57,277 nucleotides of DNA from a virus (lineage: Duplodnaviria > Heunggongvirae > Uroviricota > Caudoviricetes): IMG/VR virus record IMGVR_UViG_2721755643_000007; one strand, given 5' to 3'. A program made the position numbers and the translations under genes. Below are positions 17,494 through 34,160 of this stretch, piece by piece. The notes beneath the pieces are model-generated. The model searched no databases and was not told the DNA's origin. It worked only from the letters and a program-made list of their open reading frames with translations. Positions within the stretch are counted from its first letter, which is position 1. The number at the start of each line of letters is the position of its first letter.

Positions 17494-18813
17494 TTACACT
17501 GGTGTGTTCAGCAAATCGTTAACGGCATCAGATGCCGGGTTACCTGCAGCCAGTGGTGCCGGTGCCCCCTGCATCAGACGATCCAGCGCAGTGTCACTGC
17601 GCGCCTGTGCACTCTGTGGTGCAGCTGCCAGAATGCGGCGGGCCGTTTCCACGGTCATACCGGGGGTTTCGGCCAGCACACGTGCCTGTTCTTCGCGTCC
17701 GTGAGCTTCCTCACAGTTGAGGATCCCCATAATGCGGCTGTTTTCTGCCGCAACCGCAGCGGTGATCTGCGCGTTCACGTCCGGCTGCGCCGCGCTGGCG
17801 TTTTCGCCCTCCGTCGCTTGCACCACGTCAGTAACGTCAGCCTGCGAAGCAGTGGCTGAAACAGTTGTTGATTGAGTCTCTTTGGTCATTCGCCCTCCTG
17901 AGAGACGGGATTTACGTGCATCCAGTGCATCACGCATAACGGTGATCGCATCGGTGCTGTTGACAAGTTCATCAGCCAGTCCGGCATCAATGGCCTCCTG
18001 ACCGCTGTACACTGCAGCCTCGGTATCCAGCACAGCCTGCACGGACAGGCCGGTATATGCCGACACCTTCTGCGCAAACATCCGGCGGGTTGCATCCATC
18101 CGGGACTGCAGTGTCTCCCGGACATCACCCGGTAGATGGCTGTAGGGGTTGCCATCCACCTTATGGCTGCCGCTGTAAATCAGCGTGATTTCCACGCCCT
18201 GTTTCTCCAGCGCAGCGCCGTAATTACTGTGAGCCATCATGACGCCGATGGAGCCTGTCCGGGCGGTCTGCGTGACCAGACGCCGGGAGGCGGCGCTGGC
18301 AAGCAGCTGACCTGCACTGCAGTTCATGTCGTTGGCCAGCGCCCATACCGGCTTTATGTCACGCACACGGGCGATGATGTCAGCACAGTCAAATGCTCCC
18401 GCCACCATCCCGCCCGGTGTGTCCATATCGAGCAGAATGCCGTCCACCATCGGATCGCTGGCAGCCTGTTGCAGACGAGCGATAATGCCGTTGTAACCGG
18501 TCATTCCCGAATACGGCTGCAGCGCCCGCGTCCGGCTGACCAGCGTACCGGACACCGGCAGCACGGCGATGCCGTTCATGACCTGATAACTGCGGGCCTG
18601 TCGTGGTCCGTCATCATCACCGGATAACGCCAGCGCCGCGGGTGCCTCTCCGGCAGTCAGGCTGTCGCCGGATACTGCATCCGTCAGGCGACTGATCCCA
18701 AGCTGGCCTGCAAGCGCACAAAAGAAAACCCGCGCATAGGCGGGTTCAAGCATCAGCGGCTCATTAAAAGCCATGCTGGCAATATGCGGGAGATTACGCA
18801 GCTCTGCTGTCAC
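17494..18813 (-). CDS. C: capsid protease/scaffold protein C (Nu3 nested in-frame)
   Basis: 439 aa lambda C-like from (V)TAELRNLPHIASMAF; GTG start preceded by AGGAGG; overlaps the end of B by 20 nt. Confidence 0.9.
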   Translation of the reverse strand: MTAELRNLPHIASMAFNEPLMLEPAYARVFFCALAGQLGISRLTDAVSGDSLTAGEAPAALALSGDDDGPRQARSYQVMNGIAVLPVSGTLVSRTRALQPYSGMTGYNGIIARLQQAASDPMVDGILLDMDTPGGMVAGAFDCADIIARVRDIKPVWALANDMNCSAGQLLASAASRRLVTQTARTGSIGVMMAHSNYGAALEKQGVEITLIYSGSHKVDGNPYSHLPGDVRETLQSRMDATRRMFAQKVSAYTGLSVQAVLDTEAAVYSGQEAIDAGLADELVNSTDAITVMRDALDARKSRLSGGRMTKETQSTTVSATASQADVTDVVQATEGENASAAQPDVNAQITAAVAAENSRIMGILNCEEAHGREEQARVLAETPGMTVETARRILAAAPQSAQARSDTALDRLMQGAPAPLAAGNPASDAVNDLLNTPV

Positions 18814-19567
18814 TCTTCTCCTCCTCTGTTGATTGTCGCAGTCCGGATTCAAATGCCGCAGCCGCCCAGGCGGGCGGTTTAAGACCGGCTGCACGGCGCT
18901 CCATCGTTTCACGGACCTGCTGGGCAAAAATTTCCTGATAGTCGTCACCGCGTTTCGCGCACTCTTTCTCGTAGGTGCTCAGTCCGGCTTCTATCAGCAT
19001 CACCGCTTCCTGAACTTCTTTCAGACCATCGATGGCCATACGACCGGAGCCTATCCAGTCGCAGTTCCCCCAGGCACTGCGGGCTTCCTGAAAGCTGAAG
19101 CGCGCTTTTGAAGGTAACGTCACCACGCGGCGAACGATGGCCTCTTCAAGCCAGCACAGAAACATCTGGCTCGCCTGACGGGATGCGACGAATTTTCGCC
19201 GCCCCATAAAGTACGCCCACGACTCGTTCGCACTGGCCCGTGCCGTGGAGTAGCTCATCTGGGCGTAATTCCGGGAAAGCTGCTCATACGAGACACCCAG
19301 CCCGGCAGCGATATACCGCAACAGTGACTGCTCAAACACGGAGTAGCCGTTATCCGTATCCTGAGCCGTCTGCAGGTTCAGTGAGTCCCCCGGCATCAGG
19401 TGCGGCACTTTTGCGCCTCCCAGACGGACCGGTGCTGCGGCGTAATACGCGGCAATTTCACCAATCCAGCCCGTCAGCCTTTCCCGCTGCTCCTGACTGT
19501 TCGCGCCCAGAATAAAATCCATCGCTGACTGCGTATCCAGCTCACTTTCAATGGTGGCGGCATACAT
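18794..19567 (-). pseudogene. B: portal protein B, C-terminal fragment (gene split by the island insertion)
   Basis: 257 aa MYAATIESELDTQSAMDFILGANSQEQ...EEEKSDSRAA matches the C-terminal part of lambda gpB; begins exactly at the insertion junction. Confidence 0.9.
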
Positions 19568-19645
19568 CGCCTTTATGAAAAGACAGGAAAAAATAAAATT
19601 TAAAAACAGTACATTACGAATGCTCAGACCTATCGTTTAAAGGAG

Positions 19646-19670
19646 TCGCAATACACACTGCAATACACGA
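19646..19670. repeat. direct repeats GCAATACAC(A) near the island left end, candidate integrase arm-type sites
   Basis: CGCAATACACA and CTGCAATACACGA in tandem; same motif occurs three times at the right end. Confidence 0.5.
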
Positions 19671-19702
19671 TTATTTATAAGATGAGCGGCATCCGTCATA
19701 AA

Positions 19703-19941
19703 GCTGGTGGATGCTTTTTCTATGCATATATGCACAGTTTTAGTGGGCGTTAATGTCGATATAGGGATCCCCATATCGAGATTGGATACCTGGCTTTTTT
19801 CCGGTTAACCTTTAATCAGGCTGGTGGGCTTTACCTGTTTTGTATGAGTGGTCATCATGACCATGTCATAACAAAAACCCCATATTCGTGGTTTTTCTGT
19901 GTCGGGCTATTCTGTCGTTGCTGTGCTGATTTGGCTGGTGG
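19703..19941 (+). other. cluster of three Chi sites (5'-GCTGGTGG-3') within 240 bp, same orientation
   Basis: Exact octamers at 19703-19710, 19820-19827 and 19934-19941 on the plus strand in non-coding DNA, interleaved with palindromes (TGCATATATGCA, TCGATATAGGGATCCCCATATCGA, TGGTCATCATGACCA). Confidence 0.7.
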
Positions 19942-20009
19942 GCTGAATCATCATTACGGCGATGCAGCTATGTAGACGTTCCGGCCTCCTCAAATTGAGG
20001 ATTGTGGAA

Positions 20010-20400
20010 GAATCAATGGGTTAGTCTTACTTTCCCGACATCCCCCAATGGGGGTTTTCGAAACAATCAATAGCTTAGGCTTACTTCCCCGATTTCCTGC
20101 ATTGCAGGTTTTCGAAATAATCAATGGGTTAGGCCATCGTGCAATTTTGCACTTTGCCAGCCAGCGCAATGTCGCGTTATCAGTCCTCAGATGTGAGGGA
20201 TGTAGCCAGCTTTTCCCCCAGTGGGGGATATCCAGCACCGACGGCTTAACTGTGCGTGCCAGCACAAGGTAGCCTTGAACTACTTACTGCATCCCATCTT
20301 ACAGGCCGTGCCTTCCTGCTTAACTTTTTGCAATGCAACAAGTCAGCCAGCGCAATTTTGCGTTATCGGGAATATCAGCAAGTTACCGCCGCAATCGTTC
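20010..20400. repeat. array of imperfect direct repeats each carrying a short GC-stem hairpin
   Basis: Recurring ATCAATGGGTTAG / ATCAATAGCTTAG and GTTTTCGAAA flanks around hairpins CCCCCAATGGGGG, CTGCATTGCAG, GTGCAATTTTGCAC, CCCCCAGTGGGGG; GCCAGCGCAAT(N)TTGCGTTATC present twice. Confidence 0.55.
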
Positions 20401-20664
20401 CGGCTTCTTCCACTGGTAAGTATTTTTCGCGCTCTCCCTCCGTTGTTGAGAACGGCGACGATATGCCAGCAACTCAAGGACTCTTGTTCGTATGTTGCGC
20501 ATATCCACGCCGTTAAGCTCAATACCGTCACGGCGCATCACCTCAGCCACTACACGCACATAATTATCTGCGGTCACGCTGTCCGGCTGCGTGGCCTGTT
20601 CGTCATGCTGCTTGCTGATTCCACAAGCACGGCGGATTAATCGCAGTATTTCGGATTCAGTCAT
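20383..20664 (-). CDS. hypothetical protein (93 aa) immediately downstream of the island small terminase
   Basis: ORF MTESEILRLIRRACGISKQHDEQ...; basic C-terminus; no family recognised. Confidence 0.5.
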   Translation of the reverse strand: MTESEILRLIRRACGISKQHDEQATQPDSVTADNYVRVVAEVMRRDGIELNGVDMRNIRTRVLELLAYRRRSQQRRESAKNTYQWKKPERLRR

Positions 20665-20675
20665 AGCGTACTACG

Positions 20676-21230
20676 TTACTTATCTTTATTCGGCTGCAAC
20701 TTATCCGGTACGTTTCCGGCAGTTTCCATCAGATAATCGGACAGCATCAGCGGTATGTTTTCGTCAAGTTTTGCGCATGCGTTACAGGCTCTGATAACTT
20801 CTTTTTTCAGTCCATCCAGCATAGACGGCTTCATGTCGGGAAACTTCCTTGTCATGGCAAGCGGCAGGCTGTCCATGATTGAAGAAATCTGACTCGCCAA
20901 TTTTGAAAGCACGTATATACAAAACGCTGTATCAATAACGTCGCCGCGTTCGCGCTCGTTTTTAAGCTCCTGCGCCTCTGCCTGTGCTGTCAGCAATCTG
21001 ATCCTGACTCGTAGGAGTTCATCATCATCAATCTCGCCTTTGTCGTCTGTAATCTGGTTAATTGCATTGCTAACCCGATTGTCTATTACGCTGGCAACAT
21101 CATAAAACGCCTCGCGGCCTTTACGTTCAACGGGAGTCACTCCCCACTTGTCGAACGCTGTCGCACTTACACGGCAGCTTTGCGCCATGTTTTTTTTGTT
21201 CATCAGGTGCGATTTCATCAATATCCCCAC
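20676..21230 (-). CDS. terminase small subunit paralog (lambda Nu1-like) encoded by the island
   Basis: C-terminal two thirds align to helper Nu1 (RLLTAQAEAQELKNERERGDVIDTAFCIYVLSKLASQISSIMDSLPL versus [47 protein letters not shown]); adjacent to the island cos; true start may be the internal MNKK. Confidence 0.8.
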   Translation of the reverse strand: MGILMKSHLMNKKNMAQSCRVSATAFDKWGVTPVERKGREAFYDVASVIDNRVSNAINQITDDKGEIDDDELLRVRIRLLTAQAEAQELKNERERGDVIDTAFCIYVLSKLASQISSIMDSLPLAMTRKFPDMKPSMLDGLKKEVIRACNACAKLDENIPLMLSDYLMETAGNVPDKLQPNKDK

Positions 21231-21329
21231 TTAAGTAATGTTTCAGGTTGGTGTATTGGCTTTATCTTTTCCTTTTTATTCATAGAGATAGAGCGAACAA
21301 CAAAACCACCACCAGCACCCGAAAAAGGC

Positions 21330-21394
21330 TCATAAATAGCGAAAACCCGCGAGGTCGCCGCCCCGTAGCCTACCGGATCGCCGGAAAGGACCCG
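21330..21394. other. island cos site: cosN and cosQ-side sequence shared with helper cos, cosB side divergent
   Basis: 65 bp block nearly identical to 34091-34154 (3 mismatches); contains AGGTCGCCGCCC at 21352-21363, the reverse complement of the lambda cohesive end GGGCGGCGACCT; flanks diverge toward the TerS gene. Confidence 0.8.
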
Positions 21395-21419
21395 CCAGCC
21401 AGAACGGGCCCTAATTTCA

Positions 21420-21803
21420 TCAACCAATCAACTTATAGCGACCATCCCGTGCATTGCGACGTACACGCTCAATCTTGAGGCATAGCGCCGCATCTGGCTT
21501 TTTTGGGACAGGTACGCGGCAATATTCAGAAGATCGAGGAATATTGTTTATCCAGTCGATCACTTCACTTAAATACCAGGCCTTACGCCCTTCCGTAACC
21601 TGTACGCGTTCGGGGAACTCTCCGCGAGCCTCAAGGTTTAGCAATGTGCGACGGCTAAGGGTAGTAAGTTCCATCACCTGATTCATATCAACAAGGCGTT
21701 CACTTAAACGCATTTTGTCAGCAATAGCCTTTAATTCCTCTACTGCTGGATCCGGATACATCATTTCGGCAATTGGCTTAAGGTCATTGTAATGATTCTG
21801 CAT
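21420..21803 (-). CDS. AlpA-family HTH DNA-binding protein (second copy in the island)
   Basis: 127 aa with MELTTLSRRTLLNLEARGEFPERVQVTEGRKAWYLSEVIDWINN resembling AlpA-type motifs. Confidence 0.6.
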   Translation of the reverse strand: MQNHYNDLKPIAEMMYPDPAVEELKAIADKMRLSERLVDMNQVMELTTLSRRTLLNLEARGEFPERVQVTEGRKAWYLSEVIDWINNIPRSSEYCRVPVPKKPDAALCLKIERVRRNARDGRYKLIG

Positions 21804-21814
21804 TGTATCCCCCT

Positions 21815-22156
21815 TTACACACGAGCCAGCGGCTGAACAGAAATACCTGAGCCAACAAACGCGGCAACCTTTGCCGACAGTTCTTTTACAGACTCAGGCC
21901 AGTTCAGAGCATCAACATTTAAAACACCTGTCTTATAAACCTGTGCCTGTGTTTTTTTCACTGTGTCGATTTGTACAGCGGAAACATAAACCGCTTTACC
22001 TACGCTCGAACCATCCCATACCACCAGTGCACCTGTTGCATCTTCCTGCATCAGTGGCGTAAATGCAGGAATTACCCCTTTATTAGCTGAAAATATCCCC
22101 AGCGTAGTCACCAGTGCTTCAGTGCCAGCCATGAGTTCAGTGTAATGAGTAGCCAT
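21815..22156 (-). CDS. capsid decoration protein paralog (gpD-like) encoded by the island
   Basis: 113 aa; shares spaced motifs with helper D (TPLM.D, LV.WDG, YK.G, WPE, AF.G..IS) at low identity. Confidence 0.7.
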   Translation of the reverse strand: MATHYTELMAGTEALVTTLGIFSANKGVIPAFTPLMQEDATGALVVWDGSSVGKAVYVSAVQIDTVKKTQAQVYKTGVLNVDALNWPESVKELSAKVAAFVGSGISVQPLARV

Positions 22157-22165
22157 TGCTCCCCC

Positions 22166-23212
22166 TTAGCCAATGCGAACGGTAACAAAACGATTGATGC
22201 GGGCCGGTATTGGCTGTGGTGCTGAATGTGTCTGCACATATTCAATAGCCGGATCACCAGGCACAATATAGTTTTTCGGTGCAAGTTCGGCTTTAGTCAG
22301 CCCCATTCGGATTAGCTCCGGATCCTGAATACCGCCATAGGCGACAATCCCCTGAAGAGCCGTATTGCCAAGCACCATCAAATCAGGATCAAGGAAATGT
22401 TTTTCTGTTCCGTCCTCGTCGGTATAACGCCCGCTGTAAACAACAATCGCAACATCGCCCATATACCCTTTAAAACTCACCGAATCACCAAGGTCTTTAA
22501 GGGCCGTTTCCAGTTCGGAATTAGAACCACGACGGGTATCCAAAGCCTCTTTTATCGCTCTGAATGAACGGTATTTCTTCCATACATTACCACCCATAAT
22601 GATGATATTAGTGACGCCCTCACTAAATTCTGCGTAGCTCTCAATATCATCATTTGGATCAAAAGTTTCTTTATCCTTACCTGACCACTCAGTACCGCCA
22701 GACTGAGTGATGATATTTTGTGGTTTTATATTCCAGTCCAGCTCATAACGTTCAATACCATCGCCCTCAATGATATTTTTCCCCGTTGTGATTGCCTGAA
22801 CAGCAAGCCATTCAATACGTGCACGAATAGCTTTAGCCTGATTTACAATCGCCTGTTTAACTTTAATATTACGCGCCCCAAAAGCATTGTATTGCTCAGG
22901 TGACACACCAGCAGGGCGCACAGCTAACTTATTTGGATCAATGCTGCTTTTCGGCTTCATATAACCTGGACGAATTGTTTTTGATTCGTATCCCTCATCT
23001 CGTGAAACTTTACTGCCCACCATAGGAGAGCAAAACGCCGCGATCGGGATATTTGGATCGTCGATCGTATCAAGAATAATGTCTCTCGATTCAAACATTA
23101 CCGAGCGAGTGAAAAACAAACTGGTAAACAACGCATTTAATTTTTTTTGCACATCTTCAGCATTAGCCACCTGCACAAGCTGTGTAGGCGAATATAAATC
23201 AACCATACTCAT
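22166..23212 (-). CDS. major capsid protein paralog (gpE-like) encoded by the island
   Basis: Start MSMVDLYS; shares ITQSGGTEWS, DTRRGS.SELETA.KDLG and AIVVYSG with helper gpE; rough by-eye identity 35-40%. Confidence 0.85.
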   Translation of the reverse strand: MSMVDLYSPTQLVQVANAEDVQKKLNALFTSLFFTRSVMFESRDIILDTIDDPNIPIAAFCSPMVGSKVSRDEGYESKTIRPGYMKPKSSIDPNKLAVRPAGVSPEQYNAFGARNIKVKQAIVNQAKAIRARIEWLAVQAITTGKNIIEGDGIERYELDWNIKPQNIITQSGGTEWSGKDKETFDPNDDIESYAEFSEGVTNIIIMGGNVWKKYRSFRAIKEALDTRRGSNSELETALKDLGDSVSFKGYMGDVAIVVYSGRYTDEDGTEKHFLDPDLMVLGNTALQGIVAYGGIQDPELIRMGLTKAELAPKNYIVPGDPAIEYVQTHSAPQPIPARINRFVTVRIG

Positions 23213-23423
23213 CCTCTTTACATTCATTACAAATAATTGTGAATATATTCTATTACCGATGTCTGCTATGCGAATACATGCAACCAAGTGCAATGTTGTA
23301 TAAAATATGCCGTAACAACTTCAGTGCTGATAATTCGTGTTAATGTATTTACTTCCTTTGGTCGGGATTTATGTAGCATGCCGGAAAATCTATTTTTTTC
23401 CGGCATCTTTTTGTTTGCAGAAT

Positions 23424-23846
23424 TTAAAACGGTATATTATCGCCGTACGGATCATCATTCCCCGACTGTTGTTTTGCCCTGTTCAGTGCGTCAGTGGCCT
23501 GCCCCTGCTGGCCTTTTTTGCCGCCCGGTCGCGCCGTTCGCGCACTGATTACGCTGTCTGCGATAACCTGCCAGCCCCGCCGCGTTTCGCCGTTCTGGCC
23601 TGTCCACTGGCTTACCTGCATGTTACCCGCCACGCTCACCAGTTCGCCTTTGTGGTGTTTTGCCAGTGCGTCGGCCTGTCTGCCAAACGCCAGGACGGAT
23701 AACCACATCGTCGCCGTTCCGTCATCTGCCTGGCTGCACGGCAGGGGAACCGCCATACTCGCCATCGCCATTTGTGTCCCTTTGCTGGTGGTCTTTAACT
23801 GCGGGTCAGCCACCAGCCGCCCGTAAGCCGCTATCTGTGCTGTCAT
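23424..23846 (-). CDS. single-stranded DNA-binding protein (SSB-like)
   Basis: 140 aa; OB-fold-like N-terminus, Gly/Gln-rich linker, acidic tail ending DDPYGDNIPF. Confidence 0.75.
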   Translation of the reverse strand: MTAQIAAYGRLVADPQLKTTSKGTQMAMASMAVPLPCSQADDGTATMWLSVLAFGRQADALAKHHKGELVSVAGNMQVSQWTGQNGETRRGWQVIADSVISARTARPGGKKGQQGQATDALNRAKQQSGNDDPYGDNIPF

Positions 23847-24157
23847 GCTGTCTGCTCTCCGGTTTTAACATTGATGGTTGTCACCTGTTCCGCTTCGGCA
23901 ATCTCCCGTTCTGTCAGCGTGGCAAAGTTTGCCGCTGCTGTGGTCATGAATGCGCTTATCAGGTCGGGATGTTCCTTCGCGTATCCTGCCCGTGTGTGGT
24001 GGTCTATCGCTTTGATTGCCACCTTTAAGGAAAGCTCTGTCATGTCTAACGCTTTATATTTTGCCTGTGTTCTGTCTCTGCGAATTTTGGTCATTTGTCG
24101 CCCCTGATTCATGTTTTCGGCTGGCATGTTTGTTAAGTGATTTTTATGTATGCGCAT
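23843..24157 (-). CDS. hypothetical protein (104 aa)
   Basis: ORF with stop/start overlap to SSB, downstream of the ori iterons. Confidence 0.45.
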   Translation of the reverse strand: MRIHKNHLTNMPAENMNQGRQMTKIRRDRTQAKYKALDMTELSLKVAIKAIDHHTRAGYAKEHPDLISAFMTTAAANFATLTEREIAEAEQVTTINVKTGEQTA

Positions 24158-24169
24158 TTATTTTCACCC

Positions 24170-24440
24170 CCCCTCGTTTAAAAAGTTTTTAGTTGTGCCT
24201 CCCCCCCTCTACCCATCTACCCGAATGCTCACCATGTCAGTAATGGCGCGGCTTTCAGCGGGTAGATAGCTTTTTGACTCCTCTACCTGCCGTCTACCCT
24301 GCTACCTGAAACTGATAAAATCAGGTAGAAGAGGTAGAGAGCTTTTATTAGCCTTCTACCTAGCCCTATACCCACTTATCATGTTGAATAATATGCGTTT
24401 ATTTTGTTCAGGTAGATGGGGTAGATGGCTTTTACAAAAA
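24170..24440. repeat. iteron array (GGTAGA / TCTACC motifs), candidate island replication origin
   Basis: Many copies in both orientations (CTCTACCCATCTACCC, GGGTAGATAG, CAGGTAGAAGAGGTAGAGAG, CAGGTAGATGGGGTAGATGG) immediately 3' of the primase-helicase gene. Confidence 0.65.
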
Positions 24441-24441
24441 A

Positions 24442-26196
24442 TTATAAAAACGCGTCGCAATCGTCTGTTGTAATTGCGTTGGTCTGCGTTACTCCCTTAA
24501 CTTTTCGCGTAATATATTCATGCCCGTAAACTTTCGCCGCTGGCTTCATGGCCTTGCTGAACTCAGCCACGTTTAGCGGTTTGCTCCTGCCCGCGTATGC
24601 CATAAACGCCAGATAGACGCGGTAAAGGCTGTTCCTGGTCGTGTACTTCACTGAATCACCACCGCCACCCATCATCAGGCCGCGCGCTTCCTCCAGAAAA
24701 TTCAGGAACTGGCAAAACTCAATAACCGGATCCGTCTGTTGCTTTATTGCCAGTGCTTCATCACCGTCACGCTGTTCCAGTAGTAAAGCCCGTGCCTTCT
24801 CAGGGTCGGTAAAGTTCGCCAGCAATCGGCGGATAATAACGGGGATTTCAGCCGCAATCTTTTCCGGTAGCTCCCTGTCTTTTTCGGCCTCACTGACGAT
24901 ATTGTCGAAACGGAAAATCACGCGACGACGTGCCACACCTCCGGCCCGTTCGGTGAATATCATCGGGTTGTTGTTGGTCGCCAGCACCACCGCCCTGATT
25001 ACCGCCGTGAAACGCTTTTCATATTTCGGGTTAATTTCCACGGGGTCGCCGCCTGTGATTTTCTTGATGCCCGTTCCTTCGCCTGTATATTTCGGCTGGT
25101 CAGCCAGGACGATAAGACGACTCCCGACAACCTGCGCACGTCCACCAGCATCATCAAGCGATGTCATTTCAGCGCTTACCGTGTTCTGTTTCCCTGCCAG
25201 AAGGCTGGCTATGTGTGTGAATGTACTTTTACCGCTCCCGCCGTCTCCGGTGGCCTCAATAAACATCTGCCAGTCGTACCGATTCGCCATAATCATGTAC
25301 AGCGCGGCACATATACGCATCATCTTGCGCGGGTCTTTTCCGGCTGCGTGCTCAAGCCATTTATGAAAGTTTGGCGCGTTATCGCGGATGTTCTCCCCTG
25401 GTGCTGGTGGCGTGTACTCAATGCCGTTGTGCGTGGTGATCCAGTTCTCCGGCGTGTGCGGGGAAAATTCCCCCGTTTTCAGGTCAAGCGCACCATTGGC
25501 GAACGGCAGCAAATCGCCAGACGGCTCGCCCATTGGTTCGGCAATAACTTTTAACGCTTCCACGGCGTTATTGATTACGCGCTTGCTGAAAGTGGCCCTG
25601 TGCTCTGAATAGATCGCCACCATTTCGCGGCTAAGTTCCATTGTGCTGACCGGACACCATACCCCGCCGCGCCATACGTGAACGATTTCACTTTCAGGAT
25701 GTACGCAAACGCCATCAAAGCGATCGGCAAGCAACTGCGCGCGCTCACTGTCCGCCATCTGCGAAAGTTGCGCCTTTTGCTTTACCGGAAGCTCAATGAC
25801 CAGACCATCAGAAAGATTCTGGCGTTCACGGGCCAGATATTCGCGCCAGTTCTGCACCTCCTGGCCGTGCATACCCTCAGGATAAAAATTTGCATCCTGT
25901 ACGCCTGCTGCCGCCAGCTTCTGACCAATCGCCTTTATCATTACAGGCGCAAGATATCCGGCCCTGTATATGCGTGCTGATTTTCGGCCTTCCGGCACAA
26001 TTTGCAGATTATCCAGTTCGGATAGCTGCTGCTCCCCAAGCCACACAGGAGGCTCATTATCTCCGGCCATACGCGCATCATGTTCCTGCCATTGTTTCGC
26101 GTGTGCCCAGGCATCACTACCCGCAAAAATAATGACTTCTGTTCCTTTGTGTTTTATGCCGCGTGACTGCTGTTTTACGTTCGGTGCCAGTTTCAT
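24442..26196 (-). CDS. primase-helicase (D5 / P4 alpha-like NTPase with Walker A)
   Basis: 584 aa; Walker A GDGGSGKST; size and domain order typical of satellite and plasmid primase-helicases. Confidence 0.8.
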   Translation of the reverse strand: MKLAPNVKQQSRGIKHKGTEVIIFAGSDAWAHAKQWQEHDARMAGDNEPPVWLGEQQLSELDNLQIVPEGRKSARIYRAGYLAPVMIKAIGQKLAAAGVQDANFYPEGMHGQEVQNWREYLARERQNLSDGLVIELPVKQKAQLSQMADSERAQLLADRFDGVCVHPESEIVHVWRGGVWCPVSTMELSREMVAIYSEHRATFSKRVINNAVEALKVIAEPMGEPSGDLLPFANGALDLKTGEFSPHTPENWITTHNGIEYTPPAPGENIRDNAPNFHKWLEHAAGKDPRKMMRICAALYMIMANRYDWQMFIEATGDGGSGKSTFTHIASLLAGKQNTVSAEMTSLDDAGGRAQVVGSRLIVLADQPKYTGEGTGIKKITGGDPVEINPKYEKRFTAVIRAVVLATNNNPMIFTERAGGVARRRVIFRFDNIVSEAEKDRELPEKIAAEIPVIIRRLLANFTDPEKARALLLEQRDGDEALAIKQQTDPVIEFCQFLNFLEEARGLMMGGGGDSVKYTTRNSLYRVYLAFMAYAGRSKPLNVAEFSKAMKPAAKVYGHEYITRKVKGVTQTNAITTDDCDAFL

Positions 26197-26492
26197 TTTT
26201 TACCTCTGAATCCGTTAATCATGGTTTTCATTTTCTGGATATTTCCCCACGCTTTTTCCCTGCTGATGGGCTTACTGCGGGGTGCGGCATATACCAGGGA
26301 AAAATCACGCCGGAACTGATAAACAGGCATCACGCAGTCATAGCTATACCCCTCACGGCGGTAAGTGATGCGCCGTTCTGCCACGCCTTTAATCGTTACC
26401 GTGCCGCCGTATTTATCGCGGTAAATATCGCCGTTCATAAATTCAGGTCGAGCGGGGCCGCTGGCAATAAAGCCAGAATTTTTCATTTCCAT
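26193..26492 (-). CDS. hypothetical protein (99 aa)
   Basis: ORF overlapping the primase start by 4 nt (operon-like). Confidence 0.45.
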   Translation of the reverse strand: MEMKNSGFIASGPARPEFMNGDIYRDKYGGTVTIKGVAERRITYRREGYSYDCVMPVYQFRRDFSLVYAAPRSKPISREKAWGNIQKMKTMINGFRGKK

Positions 26493-26509
26493 ATTATTTA
26501 TTCCTCGAC

Positions 26510-26731
26510 TTAACTCGACTTATTTGATAGCAGGGCACTATTTATTGCGTCATTGAGTTTTTCTGCTGATTCATCAATAAGTGACAACAGGCCATAAGCA
26601 ATATTTGCATCTTCATTGTCATTTATGCAATCAAGCCACATATTTAATATTGCTTTTGCTGAATTATTTAAAGTTAATGAACTTTCTGCACATGCTAACA
26701 ATTTAAAAAAGACTTCCCGTTCTGTATTCAT
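26510..26731 (-). CDS. hypothetical protein (73 aa)
   Basis: Small ORF in a tightly packed co-oriented cluster. Confidence 0.4.
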   Translation of the reverse strand: MNTEREVFFKLLACAESSLTLNNSAKAILNMWLDCINDNEDANIAYGLLSLIDESAEKLNDAINSALLSNKSS

Positions 26732-26923
26732 TTAATCCCCCACCAGCTTACTTTCTTCCTCAATCAAAAAACTAGCGACACTTCCCGAAAGACGCGCCAG
26801 TAGGCTCGCCAGTGCGGATATATCAGCATCTGTAATTTTGTTCGGGTATACCTCAAGAAGGCGGCAAATAATTTCTGTCTGGTGCGCACGTTCAGCGGCT
26901 TCGTGTAATGTAATTTCCTGCAT
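26732..26923 (-). CDS. hypothetical protein (63 aa)
   Basis: Small ORF, abutting its neighbours. Confidence 0.4.
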   Translation of the reverse strand: MQEITLHEAAERAHQTEIICRLLEVYPNKITDADISALASLLARLSGSVASFLIEEESKLVGD

Positions 26924-27108
26924 TAATGCACCTCTTTTAATTCATACACTGCTGAAATAATGACTTGTGATAAGCCATATTCTGATGATTCGCTTCTCAC
27001 CGCAGCAATAGCCGTCTGAACATTAACAGCCTTCACATTCTGAGCGATACCAATTGTGTGGCCTATTGGGTTAACAGCTCGGGCAAATACACGGAAGGTT
27101 TTAAGCAT
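26923..27108 (-). CDS. hypothetical protein (61 aa)
   Basis: First gene of the leftward small-ORF operon, facing the divergent control region. Confidence 0.4.
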   Translation of the reverse strand: MLKTFRVFARAVNPIGHTIGIAQNVKAVNVQTAIAAVRSESSEYGLSQVIISAVYELKEVH

Positions 27109-27389
27109 GACTCACTCCCTGGCGGATTTTTGCAGCGAATACAGCAACACAACCGGACGGGCAACGGCTACGCGCTTCGCGTTCCGTCCAGGCGGTTACG
27201 TGGATGATTTGAGATTCTCCGGCACTCAGTGCCAGAAAACGCCACACAAAGGCCGTTTGTGTGTGTACAAGGTGTGGTATATGATTTACAGCAACCATAA
27301 CGGCTCCTAGTTTACGTTGTTGGTTAGACGCCCCGTATGTGTTCCCAGCACTGCGGGGCGTTGCTCTTTGTATTTCAACAATCCTTTCG

Positions 27390-27468
27390 GTGTGTTTCAT
27401 GTTATGAGCGCATGAAACACACGTCAAGGCTTTTTGTATTTCTTTTTTTGTGTATACTGAAACACACC
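27390..27468. promoter_or_regulatory. candidate operator/promoter: 12-bp perfect inverted repeat plus an extra half-site overlapping a -10-like TATACT
   Basis: GTGTGTTTCATG-(9 nt)-CATGAAACACAC at 27390-27422; half-site TGAAACACACC at 27458-27468; TATACT at 27453-27458; AGGAG before the ATG at 27489. Confidence 0.5.
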
Positions 27469-27488
27469 GATGATTAGGAGTTTCAGAA

Positions 27489-27794
27489 ATGGCAACGGCT
27501 AACAAAAACGCAAAATCACAACTGACAACTGTCAGAGTCCCACTAGATGTTATGCAAGGGATGGAATCCGTTAAGCTGGACGGTGAAAGCAATGCCGGAT
27601 TTATCGTAACCGCCATGCGCGGAGAAATAGCCCGCCGCCAAGCAGAAGGCAGCGGAGAAAATCCCCTTGTGTCGTCACTGGATGCCCTGGCTAAGGTCGA
27701 ACAAATCGGCATCAAAGCAGCCGAGGAGATCGGGCAACTCGTCACCGTCGCGCGTGAAGAACTCCAGCGACGCAAGGTCAAAGAGCATGAATAG
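27489..27794 (+). CDS. putative ribbon-helix-helix DNA-binding regulator (candidate island repressor)
   Basis: 101 aa; N-terminal TTVRVPLDVMQGMESV fits the RHH beta-strand/helix pattern; transcribed opposite to the replication operon. Confidence 0.5.
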   Translation: MATANKNAKSQLTTVRVPLDVMQGMESVKLDGESNAGFIVTAMRGEIARRQAEGSGENPLVSSLDALAKVEQIGIKAAEEIGQLVTVAREELQRRKVKEHE

Positions 27795-27851
27795 CCAATA
27801 TCAGCGCCATAGTTTGAGGAACGCAGGCGCATTGCTTTACAGGACAGCACC

Positions 27852-28031
27852 ATGAGCGACACAGAATCAACCAAAACACCATCACCAACTCGTAAGAGAC
27901 GACGCAAAAATATAGCGCATGAACATGAATCAGAAAGATTCGCACCTTGTTCGTTTGCTCTTGAGAAATTCCTTAAAGAGCACAGGAAAAAGCTCTCGTT
28001 GCAAACCTTGGAACGAACCAAATCTGACTGA
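27852..28031 (+). CDS. small hypothetical protein (59 aa)
   Basis: ORF MSDTESTKTPSPTRKRRRKNIAHEHE... co-oriented with the RHH gene; below the ORF-track length cutoff. Confidence 0.3.
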   Translation: MSDTESTKTPSPTRKRRRKNIAHEHESERFAPCSFALEKFLKEHRKKLSLQTLERTKSD

Positions 28032-28127
28032 TCACATTGCCCACCAGCCGCAAATGTGGCATTGTTGGTGATGCTTTTGTTTTCCCTTGTTTCCACTGGC
28101 GACCCTTTTGCGGTCGCCTTTGTTTTG

Positions 28128-28706
28128 TCACTGAATGCGGTTACCAAAGTAAAACTCAGGCTGATATTCACGTATCAGCGTTTTTTCTTCTTCCTCCAGC
28201 TCACGCTTTTTGCGCTTACATGCCTGTAGCTCCCTCCCCTTCTCGCTGGCACTTATTTGATATTGCTCTTTACGGCGGGAAAAATCCTGTAATGCACCCC
28301 ACGGGATACCATAAGTCCCCGTTTTTCTGATACCTGGTATCACATTTCTGAATACCCAGTTACTGAAACGATGAGCAAATGTGCCAGGCGTCGTTGCTTT
28401 GCGGCTGCGGGCTATTAGTTTGTAGAAACCTGACTCAGAGATAATTCTCATATTCTGATTTCCTCCTGGGGTGTAAGTTAAATTTACTCCCTTTTCATCA
28501 TCATCAAGCATCTGCAACGCCGTACGCGAATTGGTTAGTTCCAGCGCAGCACAAACATCTTTTGCAACAAACCACGGATCGCCGTTCAGATACACCACAC
28601 GAACGTTCACACTATCAAAGCGCAGAACGACGAGATCACGAATATCGCAGAATTTTTTCACTGGACGAGCGTACCCCTTGCCCGTCACGGCAATATTTTT
28701 ATTCAT
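28128..28706 (-). CDS. Bro-N domain protein (antirepressor-like)
   Basis: 192 aa; N-terminal FDSVNVRVVYLNGDPWFVAKDVCAALEL typical of Bro-N. Confidence 0.75.
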   Translation of the reverse strand: MNKNIAVTGKGYARPVKKFCDIRDLVVLRFDSVNVRVVYLNGDPWFVAKDVCAALELTNSRTALQMLDDDEKGVNLTYTPGGNQNMRIISESGFYKLIARSRKATTPGTFAHRFSNWVFRNVIPGIRKTGTYGIPWGALQDFSRRKEQYQISASEKGRELQACKRKKRELEEEEKTLIREYQPEFYFGNRIQ

Positions 28707-28762
28707 CGCGTTTTTACCTTATAGACAAAAAACCCCTCGTGATGAGGGGCATTATTTACTGG

Positions 28763-29020
28763 TTATTGCTGTTTTGTTTTTCCAGGTTTCCATCCAGGAT
28801 GCCACTCACCACGGATCCATGCCTGAACCTCTGAAAGTCGATACCCTGCAGCACGTTCACCGATCTTGATACGTCGCGGGAATTTACCTGCCTGCTCCAT
28901 TTTCCAGCGTGTTGAGTTTGCCAGCGTGGTAAGTGCTATGCACTCTTTTTCACGAATGAACCGATCAATGTCCTTCATTGTGCGCAAATCGTTTTCATCA
29001 ACAAGAGAATAAATTGTCAT
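28763..29020 (-). CDS. AlpA-family transcriptional regulator / excisionase-like protein
   Basis: 85 aa; CIALTTLANSTRWKMEQAGKFPRRIKIGERAAGYRLSEVQAWI matches the AlpA pattern; immediately downstream of int. Confidence 0.8.
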   Translation of the reverse strand: MTIYSLVDENDLRTMKDIDRFIREKECIALTTLANSTRWKMEQAGKFPRRIKIGERAAGYRLSEVQAWIRGEWHPGWKPGKTKQQ

Positions 29021-29021
29021 A

Positions 29022-30263
29022 TCACACCACCTCTTTATTAAGCTCGATAACGTTGTTGTTAAATCCTGCTATCGTATTAAGGTAATTAACCCACATATTA
29101 AGCACCTCAAGTTTTTTCTTTATATGCCTGCTTTTATTGTAAACACCAGCAACCCCTTTCACTTTATGACCTAAAAGAAGTTCGACAATATAAGGATCCG
29201 CCCCCATATCATTAAGCGTAGTGGAAAATGTGCGCCTGAAATCATGTATGCACCACAAGCCATTAGTATCATGACCAAGACGCCTGCATATTCTGTTTGC
29301 AGCCCCTGTTATTGTCGCCCTTTGCAAAGCACAACCGACAACATAACCGCGATTTTTTGTTTCTGCGTAAAGATTAACGATCCATTGTTTTATTCCGTCA
29401 GGAACAGGCCTTACTATAGCCTCCTTGTTTTTGCTGTGCTCTTTTGGGACTGTCCATACCCAGTTTTTTAAATCCCATTCGTCCCAGGTGGATAGCCTCG
29501 CCTCCTGCTGTCGGCAACCAAACACCAGGCAGATAACCATTATTCTTCGGTTATATATTGATGACAGAGTTAGCAAATTATTACCGTAAGCATAAGACCA
29601 TACATCAGCGGTTTCATTGATATTAAGAACGCGATCCCTTATACCGGATGAGCGCCCGACATAACTTACGTTAATATCTCCAAAGGGATCGCACGCGATG
29701 TATTGCCTGACGCGACAAAAACGCAACGCCTGTTTGATATCAAGAAAAATTGCACCAGACATAACAGGCGCATTTTTTTTGATCCTGTCAAAGACGGTAA
29801 GCCATGTGTGTAATTTGCACTGTTCTATAGCCATATCACCGATATAGGGGAAGATATGCTTTTCAAATCGTTTTATTAAATATTCATGCTCTTTTCTGGC
29901 TGTTGTGGCGTGATTGTCGTACCAGTAAAACAGCGCATCCCTTACGGTCACTGGTTGCATAGTTTTTTCGGCAGCAAGTTTTATTTGCCTGCGGGGGTCC
30001 AGATTTTCAGCCAGCCATTCACGGCACTGATCACGCATGCGCCTGGCCGTTGCAAGAGACATGTCAGGATAGCGACCAAGTGTAAGCCATACCGGAGGGG
30101 ATTCCCTGCCACCAAGACGATAGTAAAAAACAAAGCTGATCCCCCCAACCATGCTTACACGCACAGACAACCCGCGCCCATCCGCTATTGTTTTTTGTTT
30201 GTCCTGCCGTTTTCCGACAAGACTCTTTAACAGTTTGTCACTGAGTTTGTTTTCAATAGCCAT
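29022..30263 (-). CDS. tyrosine integrase (P4-type, with N-terminal arm-binding domain)
   Basis: 413 aa; N-terminal DGRGLSVRV / YRLGG / LGRYPDMSLATAR motifs; C-terminal HDFRRTF ... LLGH ... VYNKS. Confidence 0.9.
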   Translation of the reverse strand: MAIENKLSDKLLKSLVGKRQDKQKTIADGRGLSVRVSMVGGISFVFYYRLGGRESPPVWLTLGRYPDMSLATARRMRDQCREWLAENLDPRRQIKLAAEKTMQPVTVRDALFYWYDNHATTARKEHEYLIKRFEKHIFPYIGDMAIEQCKLHTWLTVFDRIKKNAPVMSGAIFLDIKQALRFCRVRQYIACDPFGDINVSYVGRSSGIRDRVLNINETADVWSYAYGNNLLTLSSIYNRRIMVICLVFGCRQQEARLSTWDEWDLKNWVWTVPKEHSKNKEAIVRPVPDGIKQWIVNLYAETKNRGYVVGCALQRATITGAANRICRRLGHDTNGLWCIHDFRRTFSTTLNDMGADPYIVELLLGHKVKGVAGVYNKSRHIKKKLEVLNMWVNYLNTIAGFNNNVIELNKEVV

Positions 30264-30281
30264 TAAAAGCCCTCAAGAGAT

Positions 30282-30335
30282 TTGCAATACACACCCATCC
30301 CGATCGCCAATTTGCAATACACATTGCAATACACA
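30282..30335. repeat. three direct copies of TTGCAATACACA between int and the right junction, candidate arm-type sites
   Basis: Copies at 30282-30293, 30312-30323 and 30324-30335; same motif as at 19646-19670. Confidence 0.5.
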
Positions 30336-30411
30336 AAACCGCGAAAAACTGGAAGGGTGATGAACGGTCATCAAAAGCATGGAAAACGACATTCCAGACG
30401 CAGCAAGGGTT

Positions 30412-33392
<2,981 letters not shown>

Positions 33393-33938: not shown

Positions 33939-34160
33939 TGTTCATTCCACGGACAAAAACAGAGAAAGGAAACGACAGAGGCCAAAAAGCTCGCTTTCAG
34001 CACCTGTCGCTTCCTTTCTTTTCAGAGGGTATTTTAAATAAAAACATTAAGTTATGACGAAGAAGAACGGAAACGCCTTAAACCGGAAAATTTTCATAAA
34101 TAGCGAAAACCCGCGAGGTCGCCGCCCCGTAACCTGTCGGATCGCCGGAAAGGACCCGCA
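33939..34160. other. helper prophage cos site (cosB-cosN-cosQ)
   Basis: AGGTCGCCGCCC at 34116-34127 is the reverse complement of the lambda cohesive end; flanking sequence matches the recalled lambda left end toward Nu1. Confidence 0.85.

Follow-up and report, generated by a model that had tools for sequence, protein, structure and literature searches.

The window, by which we mean the whole stretch of 57,277 nucleotides that was analysed, carries a lambda-like prophage at the argU/DLP12 site, and the portal gene B of this prophage is interrupted by a 10.9-kb helper-embedded PICI satellite at 19574-30458 (minus strand; delimited by annotation and alignment to phage HK630). The two pieces of the portal gene, 18794-19573 and 30459-31293, flank the co-oriented satellite, and the insertion is marked by an imperfect 13-bp att repeat. 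All genes of the island lie on the minus strand and encode an integrase, AlpA, a Bro-N protein, an Icd-like protein, a P4/D5-type primase and SSB, followed by an E-like capsid protein, a D-like decoration protein, an AlpA-like regulator, a Nu1-like TerS and a 93-aa ORF, with cosN placed before TerS. The element has the gene zones, the size of about 11 kb, the co-oriented position in a lambdoid late gene and the att repeats of helper-embedded PICIs. Loci identical to that of the window (100% identity) are found in the chromosomes of 49-59 complete E. coli genomes, hosts whose enteric RecBCD reads the Chi octamer GCTGGTGG. In the O157-type relatives (L127-L136) it is the terminase large-subunit gene that is split instead, and these islands have a protease-capsid fusion gene, as does their helper.

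The island cosN, AGGTCGCCGCCC at 21352-21363 (minus strand), is the reverse complement of lambda cosN and is co-oriented with the helper cosN at 34116-34127. A second cosN was absent from the window island when up to 2 mismatches were allowed. The terS gene adjoins the 93-aa gene, for whose product a search of genome contigs gave no confirmed relative. Searches with Pfam and PHROGs matched no Gam or other RecBCD inhibitor, nuclease or annealase family in the island, and SSB is present; several of the island proteins are small and could include an inhibitor. The carrier prophage encodes Gam, Bet and Exo. In the Bro zone, a 356-aa ORF (27101-28171, minus strand), whose C-terminus is Icd-like/repressor-like, overlaps a YlcI/YnfO-family gene on the plus strand (27489-27794), and in relatives the RefSeq annotation covers this ORF in fragments only.

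From the 93-aa gene to attL extends a non-coding arm of 0.8 kb (19574-20382), which contains integrase arm-type repeats at 19648 and 19660, three Chi octamers, palindromes and hairpin repeats (19981-20142). The repeat TGCAATACAC occurs at both island ends (19648 and 19660; 30284, 30314 and 30326) and is probably an integrase arm-type binding site; such repeats account for some of the left arm. The segment 19981-20382 begins with three 54-nt tandem units, each with a short GC stem that differs between them (CCTC/GAGG, CCCCC/GGGGG and CCTGC/GCAGG), continues with further hairpins and folds better than shuffled sequences on both strands (z = -4.2 and -3.8). An Rfam scan of 19000-31000 at E<=1 returned no match, and comparison of the arm with a phage collection gave a 50-bp match within roi/antirepressor genes and nothing else.

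An octamer scan of the 57-kb window placed exact copies of GCTGGTGG on the plus strand of the arm at 19703-19710, 19820-19827 and 19934-19941. The original prediction of three co-oriented Chi in non-coding DNA is therefore borne out; the interval 19574-19990 is free of any ORF of at least 50 aa. The first of these Chi lies 130 bp from the att core. Seven other copies are scattered over the island. One, on the gene-sense strand at 21309-21316 (minus), stands on the cosB side of cosN and 36 bp from it, as had also been noted, and relative L158 has a Chi at the same position. An opposed pair, also kept in relatives, lies in the SSB gene (23784-23817; 23784 plus, 23810 minus), two copies lie in the primase gene (25142-25410; 25142 minus, 25403 plus), one in a small ORF at 26732-26923 (26740-26747, minus) and one in the Bro-zone ORF (28041-28048, minus). 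The plus-strand copies are thus at 19703, 19820, 19934, 23784 and 25403, and the minus-strand copies at 21309, 23810, 25142, 26740 and 28041.

Counted on both strands, the window contains 10 Chi, a number reached by none of 100 dinucleotide shuffles (1.94 expected), and all 10 fall within the island while the other 46 kb has none. The earlier characterisation of the island as a gam-less satellite with its own cos holds as far as recognisable genes go: a lambda-type cosN is present and no recognisable Gam was detected, and the surrounding prophage is Chi-free and encodes Gam. The statement that about 0.004 copies would be expected in 240 bp is correct for random sequence but not for this island, where Chi occurs about once per kb. 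When 10 sites were placed randomly in 10,885 bp, a same-strand triple within 240 bp arose with P = 0.039. The triple is therefore only modestly unusual given the Chi density of the island itself, and the cluster may have arisen by chance. A scan of viral contigs for the triple-Chi pattern yielded at least 120 matches and is uninformative as a background.

The enrichment is a property of the whole island and of its relatives. Chi, with 10 copies, outnumbers every other octamer in the window island, and it also ranks first in E. coli 042, Nissle 1917, O157-phoQ, cf-PICI 10671, the O157 TerL-embedded island (two types from O157:H7), Salmonella L156 and L157, which include another portal-embedded island; in L158 it comes third, after the P4-type replication iteron TGTTCACC. 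Chi therefore tops the octamers in 7 of 8 related islands, with 9-13 copies per ~11 kb, and the first six islands together contain 69 copies versus 32 of the next octamer, although the compared islands share homologous segments and are non-independent samples. The flanking chromosome has about 0.22 Chi per kb, so that the island exceeds its host flanks 4-5-fold in density; host-level density and poor conservation of the sites, which had been named as grounds for rejecting the idea, are both contradicted, the latter by conserved Chi-bearing arm modules. Codon usage was rejected as the cause of the enrichment: synonymous-codon shuffling predicts 0.43 coding Chi versus 6 observed (P<0.001), and the coding copies are spread over several reading frames and both strands. 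Four more Chi lie within the 1,874 nt of non-coding island DNA. No bias toward the orientation active from the right end of cos was found, the strands being split 5 plus to 5 minus in the window island and 55 versus 45 across nine islands. The arm cluster is a local peak of an island-wide, strand-balanced Chi enrichment and no unique device.

The arms of the relatives are mosaics of short modules, and each of the three arm Chi belongs to one of them. Module A, ATCCGTCATAAAGCTGGTGGATG, with the first Chi, occurs in five variants, one of which (cf10671) has a mismatch, GCTGGTTG. Module B, CCGGTTAACnnTTAATCAGGCTGGTGGGYTTTAC, with the second Chi, was found in eight distinct variants with unrelated outer flanks, and the octamer is invariant in 8/8. 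Module C, with the third Chi, has two forms in the relatives, and both retain Chi despite an indel. The octamer is the sole element common to modules A, B and C. L149/L157, another portal-embedded island, has its own co-oriented arm triple (intervals of 106 and 117 bp), and the arm of relative L140 is Chi-free. The P4-type iteron is present in 9-10 copies in some relatives (L127, L156-L158) and missing from the window island, whose origin repeats are therefore probably different ones.

Several known systems share features with the island. Helper-embedded PICIs (Tommasini, Mageeney and Williams 2023, PMC10111431) and E. coli cos PICIs such as EcCICFT073 have the same order of integration, Bro, replication and late zones, a co-oriented insertion in a lambdoid late gene and lambda cosN; those compared carry Rpp-type genes and two cos, whereas the island encodes a Nu1-like TerS and has just one cos. 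The Rec-less lambdoid phages of the LLS class (Zheng et al. 2025, PMC12315714; Bobay et al. 2013, PMC3784561) likewise have a lambda-type cos and no recognisable RecBCD inhibitor or recombinase. In both, Chi is the commonest octamer at a density above that of the host, the combination expected of Rec-less, Chi-rich elements, and both contrast with Chi-free relatives that encode Gam. The island, however, is a 10.9-kb satellite and LLS is a phage; Chi occurs once per 1.1 kb in the island versus once per 1.86 kb in LLS, and its strands are split 5:5 in the island, whereas 20/23 Chi of LLS are active from the right end. Unlike LLS, the island has a local cluster that is non-coding, near the left end and oppositely oriented, and it has access to Gam and Red in trans from its helper. 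Phage P1 carries 50 Chi in 94.8 kb, and its circularisation via terminal redundancy requires RecA and RecBCD. Chi is the top octamer in P1 as in the island, and the island, if packaged as multimers like EcCICFT073, would enter the cell as linear and terminally redundant DNA; P1 differs in headful packaging from pac, while the island has its own capsid and decoration genes. Satellite P4 resembles the island in its P4-family primase, its Icd-like gene and an integrase with an arm-binding domain, and some island relatives share its type of iteron, TGTTCACC. In contrast to the island, P4 has zero Chi. It is packaged by the P2 terminase from monomeric circles.

We propose, with a probability of about 0.7, that the arm triple consists of functional Chi and that selection has enriched Chi across whole islands in a family of E. 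coli and Salmonella PICI satellites, with the triple as the non-coding maximum. E. coli cos PICIs need no helper to form concatemers, and multimers of EcCICFT073 are packaged into full-size heads (PMC6092414); Chi outranks all other octamers in Rec-less lambdoid phages and in P1, and phage LLS grows better with RecBCD (PMC12315714, PMC3784561). On the basis of these precedents, we read the island Chi as cis-acting RecBCD switches and infer that they interact with RecBCD to protective or recombinogenic effect. A satellite that forms concatemers, relies on a lambda-type cos for packaging and encodes no RecBCD inhibitor or recombinase module that can be recognised would be open to RecBCD at any free double-strand end, such as the tails of concatemers or rolling circles, ends cut at cos, injected linear DNA and restriction breaks. 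Chi would switch the enzyme from degradation to RecA loading, and satellite DNA would thereby be kept and recombined, with possible roles in multimer formation and resolution, in the circularisation of packaged multimers and in exchange with related islands. Three co-oriented Chi in a row would make it likelier that an enzyme coming from the cos/terS side stops before attP and int, and the arm offers a place for antisense-oriented Chi without coding cost. Helper Gam would inhibit RecBCD in the lytic cycle, so that the benefit would most likely be limited to the stage at which a new cell is entered or to helpers without Gam.

The geometry of the cos ends bears on what the arm cluster in particular may do. 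Decreasing window coordinates follow the direction of the lambda map, and the end that begins at 21351 and runs downward is the Nu1/cosB (left) end. An enzyme travelling from cosN through terS to att would approach the three arm Chi from the 3' side, in the active orientation, as the original prediction held. It is conceivable, though we consider it rather unlikely, that the triple serves specifically as an end guard, with RecBCD entering the left cohesive end at cosN and the Chi, 1.4 kb inside, protecting attP, int and the remaining genome. Beyond the correct orientation, arm Chi in 15 sampled relatives are oriented like those of the window in 21 cases versus 6 opposite, a count that comes from homologous modules and non-independent events; in lambda map orientation, moreover, three of the five bottom-strand Chi fall within the leftmost 15% of the genome and the top-strand Chi lie rightward. 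In the lambda model (Kobayashi 1982), as summarised in PMC12315714, however, terminase occludes the left end and RecBCD enters the right end, so that by the lambda standard the three arm Chi count as inactive in orientation. On entry from the canonical right end, the minus-strand Chi are the active ones, the first of them 2.4 kb in. Furthermore, an enzyme entering from the left would remove cos, terS and the 93-aa gene before the arm Chi were reached, and the cluster has a P of just about 0.04 at the island's own density. The orientation on which the proposed guarding role was built stands, but a guard specific to the cos end is one possibility among several, since Chi are strand-balanced and the end that it invokes is the occluded one in that model. 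By analogy with lambda, the fact that the triple faces this end would also count against our preferred reading. A different source of free ends is suggested by the second, inverted cosN that most relatives carry about 75 bp upstream of the 93-aa gene (position 9925 in L156-L158; position 13623 in L003, the 042 island); a free end there would face the arm, and the arm Chi would then have the canonical active orientation. EcCICFT073 has two functional cos sites, their orientation aside (PMC6092414). That the arm Chi evolved to serve such a cos, and that the window island kept its arm after losing it, nevertheless seems unlikely to us, as this island retains three Chi with no second cosN.

The remaining alternatives deny the octamers in the arm a role as Chi. 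They may be parts of longer elements acting at the protein or RNA level, in the attP arm or at the operon 3' end, that match Chi incidentally; the candidates include sites for a recombination directionality factor, IHF-type sites and a terminator. Modules A and B are conserved over ~23-45 nt, beyond the octamer, and integrase arm-type sites and palindromes adjoin them, so these modules may have a second function as well. As the whole explanation this appears improbable, because modules A, B and C have only Chi in common and Chi is the top word across coding regions, in several frames and on both strands. Passive amelioration or chance, by which a long-resident element would have drifted to a host-like Chi content, finds some room in the caveat that Bobay's prophage data may include cryptic, Chi-accumulating elements (PMC12315714), but has hardly any likelihood here: the island exceeds its host flanks several-fold, Chi ranks first in nearly every island, the enrichment survives the codon shuffle, and the prophage around it at the same locus has no Chi at all. 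Functional Chi within a selected, island-wide enrichment is the reading that we retain.

We found no literature report on Chi in PICIs or other satellites, only a general review, and the paper on helper-embedded PICIs (PMC10111431) mentions neither Chi nor RecBCD. The Chi-rich principle is known for phages; new here are the balanced orientation, the density of about 1 per kb and the Chi-bearing arm modules. As a tentative generalisation, to which we give somewhat less than even odds, PICIs as a class (cos and capsid-forming) may have evolved a Chi density above any other known from E. coli DNA, on both strands and with dedicated non-coding Chi modules beside attP, because they rely on host RecBCD and RecA to produce, protect or resolve the multimers as which they are packaged. 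If true, this would be a helper-independent counter-strategy, opposite to that of the helper's Gam and open to direct testing and engineering, and the dichotomy of encoding Gam or carrying Chi would extend from lambdoid phages to their satellites, with a nested parasite and its host phage showing opposite solutions to RecBCD at one locus. It would also point to RecBCD and RecA as host factors in PICI transfer, which is relevant to PICI-based DNA delivery tools, and Chi as top octamer could serve as a simple sequence signature for spotting such islands. Finally, the two Chi of the SSB-gene pair are opposed and 26 bp apart, an arrangement that is conserved, for example in L127 (6802 and 6828), and several arms also contain opposed Chi pairs, about 46 bp apart.
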